From positions 32,001 through 96,000 of the forward strand of contig CAVSGI010000012.1 in the NCBI GenBank assembly GCA_963727445.1: DNA of 64,000 nt, given 5' to 3'. This DNA is from an uncultured delta proteobacterium (GTDB lineage: Bacteria; Myxococcota_A; Polyangia; Polyangiales; B10-G4). Below the pieces are notes generated by a model. The model worked only from the letters and a program-made list of their open reading frames with translations. It was not told the DNA's origin and ran no database searches. A program made the position numbers and the translations under genes. Positions within the stretch are counted from its first letter, which is position 1, and every line of letters starts with the position of its first letter. Below, piece after piece: positions 1 through 22,820 of this stretch.

Positions 1-171
1 GTCGCGCCGAGACCGCTCGGCGCGCGCACGACGCATCGAACACTTCCTGCGCGCCGAGGCCCAAGACCCCAACGCCGCGAGAATCCCTTTGCCCTACAGG
101 ACTCAGACGGGCACCCATCCGTGGCCTTAGGCGATCACGAATGTAGGTATGATCTGTCGACTCGCGCTTCC

Positions 172-202
172 GGCGGGAGTGGCGGGAGGCCGTTTGTGAT
201 GG
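172..202 (-). repeat. Right half of the target repeat (module A) interrupted by the IS
   Basis: Minus strand CCATCACAAACGGCCTCCCGCCACTCCCGCC resembles 22700-22730 and 15517-15543. Confidence 0.75.
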
Positions 203-229
203 CTTCTGTGAAGCGGCCACCCCGGTCAA

Positions 230-491
230 CAGGTTTGTCTGATTTTCGTTCTACGTCGTTGCACGTCTCCTTCGCCTCGGCTCGGGTTCGTCGTTTCGCT
301 CATACGTGACGGGTTGTTCAGCCTTCTGTTCGCGCTCGACTGGGGCGGCATCGAGGCCGCGGCGCAGGGTGGGATTCGGTGGTGGTCGGCGCCATCTATC
401 CATCGGCGTTCGACAGCAGCCAGCCAGCACATCGCGCTCGACCACCATAATCGGTTCCCTTCACGAAGAGCGGGTCATCGTCGGTTGCGGG
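230..491 (-). ncRNA. Putative bridge/seek RNA of the IS1111-type element
   Basis: Non-coding 3' end with segments matching the right target (422-430, 8/9), left target plus core (396-402, 7/7), IS left end (~368-375) and IS right end plus core (323-329, 7/7). RNA boundaries are approximate. Confidence 0.7.
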
Positions 492-1523
492 TCAGGCTGC
501 AGCAGCCTCCTCACGGCTCGCTGTCGCCTCGAAGCGCGTCCCGTCTCGCCACATCGCGTACAAGATCCCCGCGAGCTTGCGCGCCAGCGCCACCGCCGCG
601 ATCCGCTTGCCGCGGCGTGCGGCGATGCGCTCCGTCCAGTCGCGTAGCGCCTTCGTCTCCGGTCGTTTGTGACGCAAGATCCCCCAGGCCGCTTCGACGA
701 GCAGCGACCTGAGACGGCGATTGCCGGTCTTCGTGATGTGGCCCCGCATCCGTTTTTCGCCAGAGCTCAGCTCGCGGGGCACCAGGCCGAGGTAGGCGCG
801 CACTTGTGAGGCGTTGTGGAAGCGACCGATCTGGTCGACCACGGCGACGAAGGTCACCGCCGTCACCGGCCCGATGCTCGGCACGGTGCACAGGCGTTCG
901 ACGGTCTCGTCGCCCTTGGCGAGCTCGGCGAGGCGCTTGTCGGCGTCGCGGATCTGCATGGTGAGCTGCTCGAGCATCGTGAGCAGCGGCGCGACCTCGA
1001 GCGCCAGGTGGGCGGGCAGTGACAGCTCCTCGATGCGCGCCGCGAAGGTCGCCGCTCCGCCGCTTCGTGGCGACAAGCCCTCGCGCCGCACAAGCGCTCG
1101 GGTGAGCGAGATGTACTTCGTTCGCGTGCGCACCAGCGCATCACGCACCGCGACCTGCGCTCGCCGATGACGGGCCGCGTCCGAGGCGCGGTGCGCTGGG
1201 CGGTACGCGCCGAGCCGGCAGGCGTCGCAGAGCGCCCGCGCATCGCGCCGGTCCGTCTTCACCTTGCGGCTTCGCGTGGCATACATCGGCGCGAAGTTCG
1301 GGTCCGCCACGATCACCTCATGGCCCAGCTCCTCGAGCCACCGCGCCACCCACTCGCTGTCCGTCGACGCCTCCATCAGGATCTTCGCCCGGGCGCGGTC
1401 CGCGAACACCTTCGCCAGCGCATCGCGCGTCGTCGCCACGCGCCGCTCCCGCAGCTCTCCCTCGCTCGTCTGGATGCAGACCTGACTTGTCTTCTTGTGA
1501 ACATCGATGCCAATGTGTTCCAC
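492..1523 (-). CDS. IS110-family DEDD recombinase/transposase
   Basis: N-terminal IGIDVHK, MEAS and KTDRRDA (DEDD RuvC-like) motifs; C-terminal TVPSIGPVTA, YLGLVPRELSSGEK (catalytic Ser) and GNRRLRSLL motifs; GGAGG RBS before the GTG. Confidence 0.95.
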   Translation of the reverse strand: MEHIGIDVHKKTSQVCIQTSEGELRERRVATTRDALAKVFADRARAKILMEASTDSEWVARWLEELGHEVIVADPNFAPMYATRSRKVKTDRRDARALCDACRLGAYRPAHRASDAARHRRAQVAVRDALVRTRTKYISLTRALVRREGLSPRSGGAATFAARIEELSLPAHLALEVAPLLTMLEQLTMQIRDADKRLAELAKGDETVERLCTVPSIGPVTAVTFVAVVDQIGRFHNASQVRAYLGLVPRELSSGEKRMRGHITKTGNRRLRSLLVEAAWGILRHKRPETKALRDWTERIAARRGKRIAAVALARKLAGILYAMWRDGTRFEATASREEAAAA

Positions 1524-1644
1524 GGCTGGCCTCCACTCTGCGGCTCTTGACCGCGTTTACGGTTGTGGGGCTACGGCTACCACGTCAGTGGCGGCCAGCC
1601 GCTTACATCCCATCTATCCACCCTTTGGGATGTACGATGAGCTC

Positions 1645-3618
1645 ATGGGGGTTCGAAGCTCTGCCACTTGGGCAGCGATGATCGTGTTCTGCTGCCACGC
1701 GTGCGGCAGCGATACACCTCGGCCCGTCGACAGCTCCGCCCCACGTCCGGACACCAGCCCTGTGGATTCTGGTTCCATCGCATCGCCGTGTCAGGGGACG
1801 GTGGCTCCCTGCACGGGCTCTACCGTCGCGGAGTGTGAAGCGACCCTCGGTTGTCACTTCGGCTACTGTGAGGATCCAGATGGCCTCCGGCGATGCTCGC
1901 TTCGCGACTTGCTGGAGTGCAACATCCTCGGCTGCTACGTCGAAGGCGCAGTGTGCACCGGGTCCGCGGCGTCCTGCGACACCTTCGAGTCCCCGGACGA
2001 ATGCAGCGCGCAGGACTGCAGCTGGCGAACAGCCAGCGCGACAGGGACAGAGGAAATGTGTCTGGGAAGCGCCACTCCCTGCGCCGACCTCGACGCAGCC
2101 CGCTGCATGTCGCAGCCAGGGTGCGTTCCAACCGGTGATGCCGGTGCAGACGCCGCGATGGACGCGGGACCGGACTACACGATCATCGGCTTCGTCACGC
2201 CTGGCCTGGGTGCCTACGTAGAAGGCGTCGTGCGGGTGGAGCTCGCGGTGCGTGGGCCGGCCCCCGACCGCATTCAGCTCTTCATCGACCGAATCGCGGG
2301 CGCTATCGCCTCGCTGACCGAACCGTACACCTACGATCTGGACACCAGTCGTGACCCGGAAGGGCCCCTGGTGCTGTTGGCCCAAGCGATTCGTGCCGGC
2401 GAAGTCGTGGCCGAGGCCCGCCGAACGCTCACCGTCGACCGAACGTCCCCCACGGTCGTGACGTGGCCGAGTGAAGGCAACGTCTTCGACGGCATGAGGG
2501 TCGTGTTCTCCGAGGCGATGGCGAGCTCGACCCTGAATGCGTCGACGGTGGAGCTTCTCGTGGACGGCTCACCACATCCGATTGACGTCTCGCCCTCGGA
2601 CACCTTCGTCGACCTCCTGCCCACGGCCGACATCGAGGTCCTACCCACGACAGCGACGATCCAGCTCTCGGACGCGGTCACGGATCTCGCCGGTCATTCG
2701 CTGGGACTTCAGTCATCGGACATCGACTTCCCTCGGTGGGTCTCCATCTCCGATCTCACCTTCGCGGCCGGGGGTACAATCCTCGACATCGTAGAGGGCA
2801 GCGGCGGTCGCCTCCTCGTTCTCTATGAAGTTTCGGACGCGACCTACGTGGCGAGATGGTCCGGACGGACCTGGGCCGCCCGGGTCGCCGGGCCCATCGG
2901 TTACACCGCCGGCACCATCCAAGGTCGCGTTCGGGAGCTCCCGAGCGGGGAGTTCGTGGTCGCGCTGCGAGACTCGTCCAACGTGGACGTCTATCGCATC
3001 TTGGGGTTCCCCGCTTCTCGCATGGGGAGCTTCACCAGCTACGGCTCCATCGACTTGGAGGTCGATGGAACCGACGTCTATCTGGCTCGGAACACGGGCG
3101 TGGCCGTTTTCGTCGACCGGTACCGGGGCGGGACGTTCGGCATGGTGGACACCATCCGTCCCGCCGGCTCAGTCAGCTCCTTCGACTTGGTTGCGTCGTC
3201 GGGCCGGGCCTTCGTTCTCTACCGCGACAGTGACGGCGTCTGTGGTCAGGCGCGGGTGGACTTCACGCCGACCCTCGGACCACCCCTCGCAACCGGTTGC
3301 ACGCTCCTCGCCGCCACGGTGGGAGGCGACGCAAACATCTACGCCGCAACCACCATCGGGTCCACGTCCACGATCCACCGGATCGCCGGCGGGGACTTCC
3401 TCGAGGCGGCCACGGATTCTTTCGACCCGCCCATCGCGGTTCTGAGACCAGCAACGACTGGCTGGATAGCGAAGTCAGGCGGCACGCTTCCCGGCGTCTA
3501 TCGGGGCGATTCGACGCTTCTCTACGAAGGTCCGAGCATGAGTGGAAGGTTCCTCACACCAGGTGACACGCCACATCTGCTCAGTGGCGACGTGCTCTAC
3601 CGAATCAACGCGCTGTAA
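1645..3618 (+). CDS. Surface lipoprotein with Cys-rich region, bacterial Ig-like domains and a beta-rich C-terminus
   Basis: Lipobox-like HACG; Cys-rich repeats; Ig-like motifs (PYTYDLDTS..EGP..L.AQA; TVDRTSPTV..VFSEAM...TL..STVEL; VTDLAG). Start uncertain. Confidence 0.7.
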   Translation: MGVRSSATWAAMIVFCCHACGSDTPRPVDSSAPRPDTSPVDSGSIASPCQGTVAPCTGSTVAECEATLGCHFGYCEDPDGLRRCSLRDLLECNILGCYVEGAVCTGSAASCDTFESPDECSAQDCSWRTASATGTEEMCLGSATPCADLDAARCMSQPGCVPTGDAGADAAMDAGPDYTIIGFVTPGLGAYVEGVVRVELAVRGPAPDRIQLFIDRIAGAIASLTEPYTYDLDTSRDPEGPLVLLAQAIRAGEVVAEARRTLTVDRTSPTVVTWPSEGNVFDGMRVVFSEAMASSTLNASTVELLVDGSPHPIDVSPSDTFVDLLPTADIEVLPTTATIQLSDAVTDLAGHSLGLQSSDIDFPRWVSISDLTFAAGGTILDIVEGSGGRLLVLYEVSDATYVARWSGRTWAARVAGPIGYTAGTIQGRVRELPSGEFVVALRDSSNVDVYRILGFPASRMGSFTSYGSIDLEVDGTDVYLARNTGVAVFVDRYRGGTFGMVDTIRPAGSVSSFDLVASSGRAFVLYRDSDGVCGQARVDFTPTLGPPLATGCTLLAATVGGDANIYAATTIGSTSTIHRIAGGDFLEAATDSFDPPIAVLRPATTGWIAKSGGTLPGVYRGDSTLLYEGPSMSGRFLTPGDTPHLLSGDVLYRINAL

Positions 3619-4131: not shown

Positions 4132-4239
4132 CCGTCCGACAGGCGGCGCAGGGCTCGGGAAGGAGCGATTGGAGCGGCTCCGACACGAAGAGAGGGTGAC
4201 GCGAGTGCGCACGGAGGTCGAGGGTGTAGGCGGGAGCCC

Positions 4240-4297
4240 CGGTTTCCAGCCTCCGCGGAAGCCAACCGCCTCCCCGCATGCCCGAGTTTCCGAGAAG
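4240..4297 (-). repeat. Dispersed repeat module B (copy 1)
   Basis: Minus strand CTTCTCGGAAACTCGG...GGTTGGCTTCCGCGGAGGCTGGAAACC matches 15576-15626 and 22759-22817. Confidence 0.8.
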
Positions 4298-4345
4298 GCA
4301 CTCGAACCGCGAAGGTAGACTTCGCCCATCCGCTCTCCTCACCGA

Positions 4346-15454: not shown

Positions 15455-15505
15455 GTGGATAGATGGGATGTAAGCGGCTGGCCGCCACTGACGTGGTAGC
15501 CGTAG
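15455..15505 (+). mobile_element. Truncated left end of the IS110/IS1111 element (opposite orientation to 203-1615)
   Basis: GTGGATAG plus ATGGGATGTAAGCGGCTGGCCGCCACTGACGTGGTAGCCGTAG is identical to the reverse complement of 1571-1621. Confidence 0.9.
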
Positions 15506-15630
15506 TTGATAGATGGCGTGAACGGCCTTCCGCCATCCTCCCGCGAGCCAGGGGCTACATCATCGCTCCTACCGCGAAACTCGGACGTCCGGTGAAGGGG
15601 GTTGGCTTCCGTGGAGGCTGGAAACCTGAG
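15506..15630 (+). repeat. Dispersed repeat modules A+B (copy 2)
   Basis: TTGATAG..TGAACGGCCTTCCGCCA...CTCCTAC..GAAACTCGGACGTCCGGTGAAGGGGGTTGGCTTCCGTGGAGGCTGGAAACC; colinear with 22693-22817. Confidence 0.8.
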
Positions 15631-22652: not shown

Positions 22653-22820
22653 GGCGGGTGGCGGACGGTTCGCCGTCTTTTCGGCGCAAGTGTTGATAGC
22701 CGCCATGAACGGCCTTCCGCCACTCCCGCCATCGGGCGCGCGCGACAAAACACTCCTACTTCTCGGAAACTCGGACGTCCGGTGAAGGGGTTGGCTTTCG
22801 TGGAGCCTGGAAACCGGAGT
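22653..22820 (+). repeat. Uninterrupted dispersed repeat A+B (empty IS target)
   Basis: TTGATAG-CCGCCATGAACGGCCTTCCGCCACTCCCGCC...CTCCTACTTCTCGGAAACTCGGACGTCCGGTGAAGGGGTTGGCTTTCGTGGAGCCTGGAAACC; an imperfect IR (22653-22671 vs 22707-22730) flanks the AG core. Confidence 0.8.

Follow-up and report, generated by a model that had tools for sequence, protein, structure and literature searches.

Here we describe an insertion sequence (IS) of the IS1111 type, together with its recombinase gene and a predicted guide RNA, near the start of a 64,000-nucleotide stretch (hereafter the window) of contig CAVSGI010000012.1 from an uncultured delta proteobacterium of the order Polyangiales (assembly GCA_963727445.1). 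The body of the element spans 205..1613 on the minus strand, the strand of every feature of the element given below, and its size is 1409 bp plus one of the two AG dinucleotides that flank it. At the left junction, GGTGGAT (1616..1622), which is the left half of the target and consists of the outermost bases of the targeted repeat, is followed by a core AG (1614..1615) and by the left end of the element, ATGGGATG (1613-1606); at the right junction, CACAGA (210-205) is followed by the right copy of the core AG (203..204) and by CCATCAC (202-196), with which the right half of the target and the remainder of the repeat, an IS91-type end, continue over 143..202. The left end opens with a terminal extension, ATGGGAT (1607..1613), which is conserved in relatives and corresponds to the right half of the circle-junction donor site; it leads into the left subterminal inverted repeat GTAAGCGGC (1598..1606), the reverse complement of 208-217 save for a one-base indel. 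The right subterminal inverted repeat, GCCGCTTCAC (208..217), is followed by the 3-bp extension AGA (207-205). When the duplicated AG is not counted, extensions of 7 (ATGGGAT) and 3 (AGA) are the IS1111 pattern, for which Siddiquee et al. (2024, PMC11187229) describe extensions of 7 bp on the left and 3 bp on the right and subterminal inverted repeats usually of 11-13 bp; the repeats here, of 9-10 bp with a one-base indel, are shorter and less perfect than is typical. Among 41 relatives with assigned ends the subterminal repeats match at 9-12 of 12 positions, under a selection rule that itself demanded at least 9.

The transposase gene (492..1523) encodes a predicted bridge recombinase of 343 amino acids (aa), with a GTG start and a GGAGG 7 nt upstream, and leaves 287 nt of non-coding DNA downstream (491-205) versus 90 nt upstream (1613-1524). 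The protein matches the Pfam domains DEDD_Tnp_IS110 (PF01548, E 1.2e-17) and Transposase_20 (PF02371, E 1.2e-24) and its full length aligns with the bridge recombinases of solved structure from ISCro4 (9t56, E 5.2e-17) and IS621 (8wt6, E 3.3e-16); in the ISCro4 alignment the GIDV, MEA, KTDxxDA and SG motifs line up with the 343-aa protein. IS1111 transposases are described as having 330-350 aa and a GL-P----S(T)G motif (Siddiquee et al., 2024, PMC11187229), and this motif is present here as GLVPRELSSG, its SG aligning with that of ISCro4. By every defining feature visible in its sequence the element is a member of the IS1111 family, within IS110; the IS1111-type assignment of an earlier note on this DNA is borne out by the two Pfam domains, the protein length, the GL-P----SG motif, the long 3' non-coding region and the subterminal repeats. 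Relatives at 55-68% protein identity are spread over several phyla (Sandaracinaceae, Polyangiales, Archangium, Pyxidicoccus, Acidobacteriota, Gemmatimonadota, Rokubacteria and others), and no close named relative of the element was found.

Surveying the genome (9.47 Mb, 27 contigs) for copies, we observe two subfamilies. Subfamily A comprises five near-identical copies, namely that of the window, two on contig C9 and one on C11 (99.8-100% identity), and one at the start of C24 (98%), while subfamily B comprises three copies at 90% identity to A, one on C11 and two on C21. The copies begin AG-ATGGGATGTAAGCGG and finish CTTCACAGA-AG, with the exception of the C24 copy, whose left end is lost at the contig start and whose right end is missing one T; AG stands on both sides of all copies, and the empty site has one AG. 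Indeed, the empty target that the earlier note had deduced as TGGAT-AG-CCATCAC occurs uninterrupted three times in the genome (TGGATAGCCATCAC, on C9, C20 and C21), and the identical ends that it would have other copies share are found in them. The ends are real, because eight full or near-full copies share exactly these ends and three empty targets exist. Besides these copies, C11 carries a fragment (C11:34731-35243, 94% identity) with only the first ~420 nt of the element, and within the window a 49-nt remnant of the IS left end (15455-15505, plus strand; GTGGAT-AG-ATGGGATG...GCCGTAG) is 100% identical to the full copy, the rest being gone; next to this remnant stands the tip of a further IS91-type repeat copy (GTTGATAGATGGCGTGAACGGCC).

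Directly 3' of the gene lies a predicted bridge RNA or seekRNA gene (312..453), a covariance-model match of 156 bits with a conserved core at ~316-446. The model was derived from an RNAalifold alignment of eight sequences and run on 79 loci chosen by transposase alignment and on five other loci; it gave 76 matches, a single one of them in the window, and places the RNA in 70 of the 79 related loci, always on the gene strand and just 3' of the gene (five of the nine loci without a match terminate within ~110 nt of the protein match). In the RNAalifold consensus, the target-binding stem-loop (381..446) consists of a 12-bp outer helix (446-439 and 437-434 with 392-381), with compensatory changes at 9 of 12 pairs and 97% of cells paired, and a 4-bp inner helix (422-419 with 407-404) that carries an 11-nt apical loop (418-408); the internal loop between the two helices holds both target guides. 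Further 3', an almost invariant helix, UGCGC/GCGCG (366-362 with 335-331, 99% of cells paired), and its variable hairpin (331..366 together) stand between the two donor guides, the helix being flanked 5' by AUCCCACCC and 3' by A-ACAGAAG. In the alignment of related loci, 16 of 25 base pairs change on both sides, and standard pairs make up 94.0% of cells (83.8% after shuffling, 32-45% with slid partners); these pair counts come from an alignment fitted to the model's own structure, which favours that structure. One relative, L091, has two identical copies of the RNA (2285-2429 and 3052-3196) ~770 nt apart, the second without a full transposase gene ahead of it, perhaps as a solo RNA module or through partial duplication; extra small-RNA copies of the element ISPpu9 have been described in its host (PMC12288879).

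Four segments of the RNA match the junctions of the element, and the junction, guide and -35 strings listed in the earlier note are each found on the minus strand where it had placed them. The right target guide, GUGCUGGCU (422..430), is complementary to top-strand AG+CCAnCAC at 8/9 positions (in DNA letters, GTGCTGGCT at 430-422 complements AGCCATCAC at 8/9); the left target guide, UGGAUAG (396..402), is identical to top-strand TGGAT+AG and would pair with the bottom strand. The right donor guide, AUCCCACCC (367..375), is complementary to AG+ATGGGAT at 7/9 positions, 6 of them contiguous, and includes the segment ATCCCACC (375-368) that had been singled out before; the left donor guide, ACAGAAG (323..329), is identical to the IS right end ACAGA plus the core AG at 7/7 positions.

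These matches suggest how the element might move. On the target side, the internal loop of the first stem-loop would present two guides, GUGCUGGCU pairing with the top strand of AG-CCAnCAC and UGGAUAG with the bottom strand of TGGAT-AG, so that both together would read the 14-bp TGGAT-AG-CCATCAC. On the donor side, AUCCCA(CCC) and ACAGAAG, flanking the second conserved helix, would read the abutted ends ACAGA-AG-ATGGGAT of an excised circle. Recombination at the common AG core would leave an AG on each side, and circularisation would bring a -35 hexamer, TTGACC, to 17 nt from GAAGAT, giving a promoter that would transcribe the recombinase gene and then the RNA.

The genome itself offers a view of target choice. 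All eight copies sit in G(T/C)GGAT-AG-(CCATCAC/TAACCA) and in a single orientation relative to the repeat. Exact A targets number five occupied and three empty, exact B targets three occupied and none empty, and ten repeat tips that differ by one or two bases in their left half from a guide-matched site are all empty (GGGTAG(T/C)AACCA five times, CTGATAGCCATCAC five times); site occupancy tracks guide match. The A copy on C11 lies at a site that has only GTGGAT-AG-CCATCACA in common with the repeat, which argues that recognition is short-range, over ~15 bp, and does not take in the whole repeat. This same copy (C11:5160-6585), whose site is without the remainder of the repeat, matches the transposase over residues 1-283 only.

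Comparison between the subfamilies points to natural retargeting at exactly the guide positions. Specifically, the subfamily B target is GCGGAT-AG-TAACCA(C/T) versus GTGGAT-AG-CCATCAC in A, and in the B copies UGGAUAG becomes CGGAUAG and GUGCUGGCU becomes AUGCUUACU or AUGUUUACU, with the donor segments and the IS ends unchanged. The same correspondence recurs at greater distance: from 201 same-order genomes searched, 18 with a match, we took five relatives at 57-67% protein identity, whose flanks are quite different and whose guide segments match in each. Among these segments are UUGUUUUUACU for AG-CAAAAACAA, CAUGUCUGCU for AG-CCGACATG, AGCGUAG for AGCGT-AG and AGAGAAG for the IS end AGAGA-AG. 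Target guides differ even among close relatives.

We then scored this correspondence across the related loci, with element ends assigned blind to the guides as the best inverted-repeat pair carrying GAAGCG/CGCTTC motifs, which gave both ends in 41 of 76 rows. (A rule using the best inverted-repeat pair alone had mis-assigned many ends and was replaced by the one that adds the GAAGCG.../...CGCTTC motifs.) Three rows were dropped (L095 and L103, with a visibly mis-picked left end, and L076, with a truncated RNA match), the left end of the window element was set by hand since the rule chose a spurious site, and for L054 the right flank used lies at an internal duplication, so that its own score falls and the test is conservative there. 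For the 38 elements kept, 37 with distinct targets, the score was the best ungapped match of the loop side against the junction. The right target guide scored 7.24/9 at its own junction versus 4.70 at those of others (0/20,000 permutations), the left target guide 6.24/7 versus 4.45 (0/20,000), the left donor guide 6.59/7 versus 5.54 (0/20,000) and the right donor guide 6.03/9 versus 5.70 (12/20,000); the related elements are kin, and these permutation counts overstate their independence. Guides thus match their own junctions better than those of others, in sequence comparison strongly for three of them and weakly for the right donor guide. The covariation that the earlier note had wanted checked in homologs is therefore found at all three depths, in subfamily B, in the five relatives and in the 37 elements; its statement that all four guides are identifiable holds for both target guides and the left donor guide, and only in part for the right donor guide, with its 7/9 match and weak covariation. 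In L023, L041 and L054 (67% protein identity) the right end is tandemly duplicated 3' of the RNA (...CTTCACAGAAG|AAGGATGAC...CTTCACAGAAG|TCGGTTC), the second unit starting within the sequence that codes for the left donor guide, as though these elements had used their own guide-coding DNA as a pseudo-site.

Matches of 7-9 nt do arise by chance in GC-rich DNA, and the folding energy of the region is unremarkable, so it might be argued that the segments resemble guides by accident, or reflect properties of the DNA such as traces left by earlier insertions, and have no role in an RNA. We regard this as barely credible, since the positions of the segments are fixed within a structure that 70 of 79 related loci conserve, and since the segments change with the target in every subfamily examined.

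The donor side calls for more caution, and a 'bridge' function appears less secure there than on the target side. The RNA could be a seekRNA only, one that selects the target while the protein reads the IS ends through the subterminal repeats, the donor guides being non-functional. Such an arrangement would fit the imperfect and weakly covarying right donor guide, the want of a closing helix for a donor loop, the long subterminal repeats that adjoin the donor bases, and the finding that seekRNAs of 82-96 nt, described by their target matches, suffice for movement of ISEc11 (PMC11187229). It sits poorly with the left donor guide, which follows five right-end variants (ACAGA, ATAGA, AGAGA, ATACA and ATAAA; 0/20,000 permutations), and with the donor segments abutting a nearly invariant helix in the same layout as the target guides; furthermore, donor-complementary loops are reported in inspected IS1111 elements (Durrant et al., 2024, PMC11208160). 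On balance we consider a purely target-selecting RNA unlikely, and favour the bispecific RNA that the earlier note had proposed, for which guide order, the conserved RNA 3' of the gene and guide/junction covariation all argue, more weakly on the donor side. Of the IS1111 elements listed in ISfinder, 93.0% have been predicted to encode a bridge RNA at their right end (Durrant et al., 2024, PMC11208160).

By analogy with the family, the RNA is probably transcribed from a promoter formed at the circle junction. The outward-facing -35 hexamer TTGACC (224..229) is followed by a 17-nt spacer (223-207) and then by GA+AG, which AT from the left end would complete to GAAGAT; the latter agrees with TATAAT at 3/6 positions, A2 and T6 included. 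This arrangement, pointed out in the earlier note, is confirmed in the sequence, and 32 of 41 relatives have TTGAC equally far from their right end, five more having it displaced by one base. Siddiquee et al. (2024, PMC11187229) describe, for both families, a promoter that arises when the circle forms and is presumed to drive the transposase gene, and from which transcription would extend over the non-coding region as well. A sigma-70 consensus scan of 150-1700 also returned one terminator-like site, on the plus strand within the gene and at chance level. Among metagenome assemblies (18 sequencing runs, all as contigs, with at most 14% of sampled words), the matching DNA contigs belong to a ~92%-identical relative with a different right flank, among whose listed differences in the non-coding region are guide positions 402, 424, 427, 430 and 431 (90 further differences lie outside the list). 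A 157-nt contig from an RNA library spans 1475-1617, its left flank being different; since such libraries may contain DNA, it is no evidence of transcription.

To judge from sequence identity, the element has recently been active, because three copies stand at 99.8-100% identity and further copies at 98% and 90%. It might instead be a relic, its RNA and matches inherited from an active ancestor and this copy immobile: we have no direct sign of activity, fragments of the element exist in the window (15455-15505) and on C11 (34731-35243), and one A copy matches the protein over residues 1-283 only. An immobile copy is nonetheless very unlikely, given an intact open reading frame (ORF) with aligned catalytic motifs, copies at different sites that are 99.8-100% identical, and four guides that all still match the present junctions.

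We weigh the explanation that this is an intact, recently active IS1111 element whose DEDD/serine recombinase is guided by a ~130-nt RNA from the 3' non-coding region. Besides the model-fitted alignment and the kinship of the elements noted above, several observations weigh against it. Folding is no better than that of shuffled sequences (z +0.35 for 205-491, 287 nt; z -1.03 for 312-453, 142 nt), the single-sequence minimum-energy fold pairs parts of both target guides weakly together, and an Rfam scan of window positions 1-2500 (E up to 10) returned only a chance-level match to hya (18 bits, E 6.4) that falls within the transposase gene. No helix closing a donor loop was found in this element, so that of the two internal loops anticipated by the earlier note only that of the target guides, which lie there and not in stems, is recovered. 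The right donor guide mismatches two of the three helix-adjacent positions and covaries weakly, and the left donor guide has the same sense as the IS end, such that homogenisation at the DNA level could mimic covariation. Finally, the sigma-70 scan finds no promoter-like site in the linear element, the assembly holds no circle junction, and the metagenome contigs aligned to the window show no joint, neither a circle junction nor the empty-site form. Even so, we hold the explanation to be highly probable as a whole, including an intact, programmable recombinase as far as sequence and family allow that to be read; that the RNA is made and binds the protein, that the circle forms and that its promoter fires we infer from the published biochemistry of the family.

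Beyond the four guides, the left target guide is followed by AU (394..395), matching the AT with which the IS left end begins. Most of the 37 elements share this match: 34 have the same base as position 1 of their IS left end and 31 the same base as position 2, as against only 3 and 4 for the cognate right target; where the left end starts with TT, UU follows the guide in 5/5 elements, and 0/20,000 permutations reach the observed match. Since the dinucleotide matches the IS left end, the extended guide spells the left junction of the product and not the empty site. The arrangement is reminiscent of IS621 and its handshake guides, which pair with non-cognate DNA after strand exchange and which block the reaction when they pair with cognate DNA (Hiraizumi et al., 2024, PMC11208158). 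There, such guides are extensions of the right guides that bind the top strand, whereas the dinucleotide here stands beside a guide for the bottom strand. On the donor side, comparison by eye of the bases after ACAGAAG with the right target in the five nearest relatives gave no consistent match. In those portions that we draw on of a further paper, retrieved for IS1111 and the handshake (PMC13626964), mentions of IS1111 are in the reference list. That the handshake-like dinucleotide is conserved on the opposite guide from IS621 matters for understanding in which order strands are exchanged and for designing editors based on IS1111.

The target of the element is itself part of a mobile element. 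Its right flank belongs to a repeat of ~120 nt with ~35 genomic copies, many clustered on the window's contig; those in the window lie at 143-204, 4239-4298, 15521-15629 and 22691-22818, and further copies, in both orientations, are found on C12 upstream of the window and on C9, C11, C20, C21 and C24. Most are solo, and a few stand directly 3' of an IS91-family transposase gene; in the longer conserved units this gene, with Zn_Tnp_IS91 and Y2_Tnp domains, ends ~200 nt from the tip and points to it. By eye, the repeat has two palindromes. Its tip (..GGCTATCCAC in the orientation of the IS91 gene) may resemble the CCTATCC-type terminus that is conserved at the oriIS ends of IS91 and ISCR elements. 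For IS91 itself, oriIS is the end that lies 3' of tnpA, and it contains two subterminal palindromes (PMC13181058). Because the repeat lies downstream of an IS91-family gene and has two palindromes, we read it as an oriIS-type end, with the element inserted 8 bp inside it. This preference seems, from the flanks of relatives, to belong to the whole clade, because in four of them (L060, L081, L108 and L072) an IS91-like gene faces the IS right end, and many right flanks have the common pattern nnnACAT(G/A)AAC. One literature search joining IS1111 with IS91 and oriIS returned a single, unrelated paper. On C9, the IS91 transposase beside an empty target (C9:924837-926298; 2338-3802 of L052) falls into two ORFs of 212 and 296 aa that overlap, suggesting a frameshift, and an ORF with a 23S_rRNA_IVP domain lies just upstream of it.

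Taken together, these strands raise the tentative and rather doubtful picture of a cross-phylum IS1111-type clade that parasitises IS91-family transposons, with guides that drift and with a strand-exchange geometry opposite to that of IS621. If it were true, the clade's conserved core and left target (..AT-AG) would coincide with the oriIS-type tip, RNA guides would drift after variants of that end, with two guide versions in one genome, and insertion 8 bp from the tip would sever the tip from the palindromes, probably disabling that end; strand exchange by IS1111-type enzymes would follow an order or geometry opposite to that of IS621. The preference for IS91 ends would be a case of one mobile element policing or exploiting another. 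The value of the locus lies in one genome that holds the element, empty targets, unfilled near-miss targets and a sister subfamily with naturally rewritten guides; furthermore, the ~70 relatives are a ready covariation set for an IS1111-type RNA, which is much less studied than that of IS621.

Nothing here is new in kind, bridge RNAs and seekRNAs of IS110 and IS1111 elements having been described in 2024. The closest published systems are ISEc11, ISPa11 and ISKpn4/ISPst6 (PMC11187229), which like this element have a protein of 330-350 aa with the GL-P----S(T)G motif, a long 3' non-coding region and subterminal inverted repeats, and whose promoter at the circle junction has a predicted counterpart here; the present element is of another lineage with another target, and is set against them by description, not by sequence. 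As in IS1111 seekRNAs, the guide nearer the 5' end is complementary to the top strand and the one 3' of it to the bottom strand, with an overlap of both at the insertion point (PMC11187229); natural retargeting between relatives has likewise been published, for ISEc11 versus ISXne4 (PMC11187229). With IS621 (Durrant et al., 2024, PMC11208160; Hiraizumi et al., 2024, PMC11208158) the element shares a DEDD and serine recombinase, a putatively bispecific RNA whose guides for target and donor are arranged around a 2-nt core, and a guide-adjacent dinucleotide that matches the non-cognate partner. It departs from IS621 in having its RNA 3' of the gene (5' in IS621), its guides in reverse order, long subterminal repeats and AG as core (CT on the other strand). 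A known IS1111-type element that has the inverted repeat of Tn3-family transposons as its target is also specific for the terminus of another transposon, whereas the target here is an IS91-type (HUH, rolling-circle) end with many solo copies.

Next to the element, a 703-aa ORF (1507-3618, plus strand) begins within the IS left end and continues into the left flank, its N-terminus being drawn from IS sequence; the insertion may have altered or created the start of this neighbouring gene.

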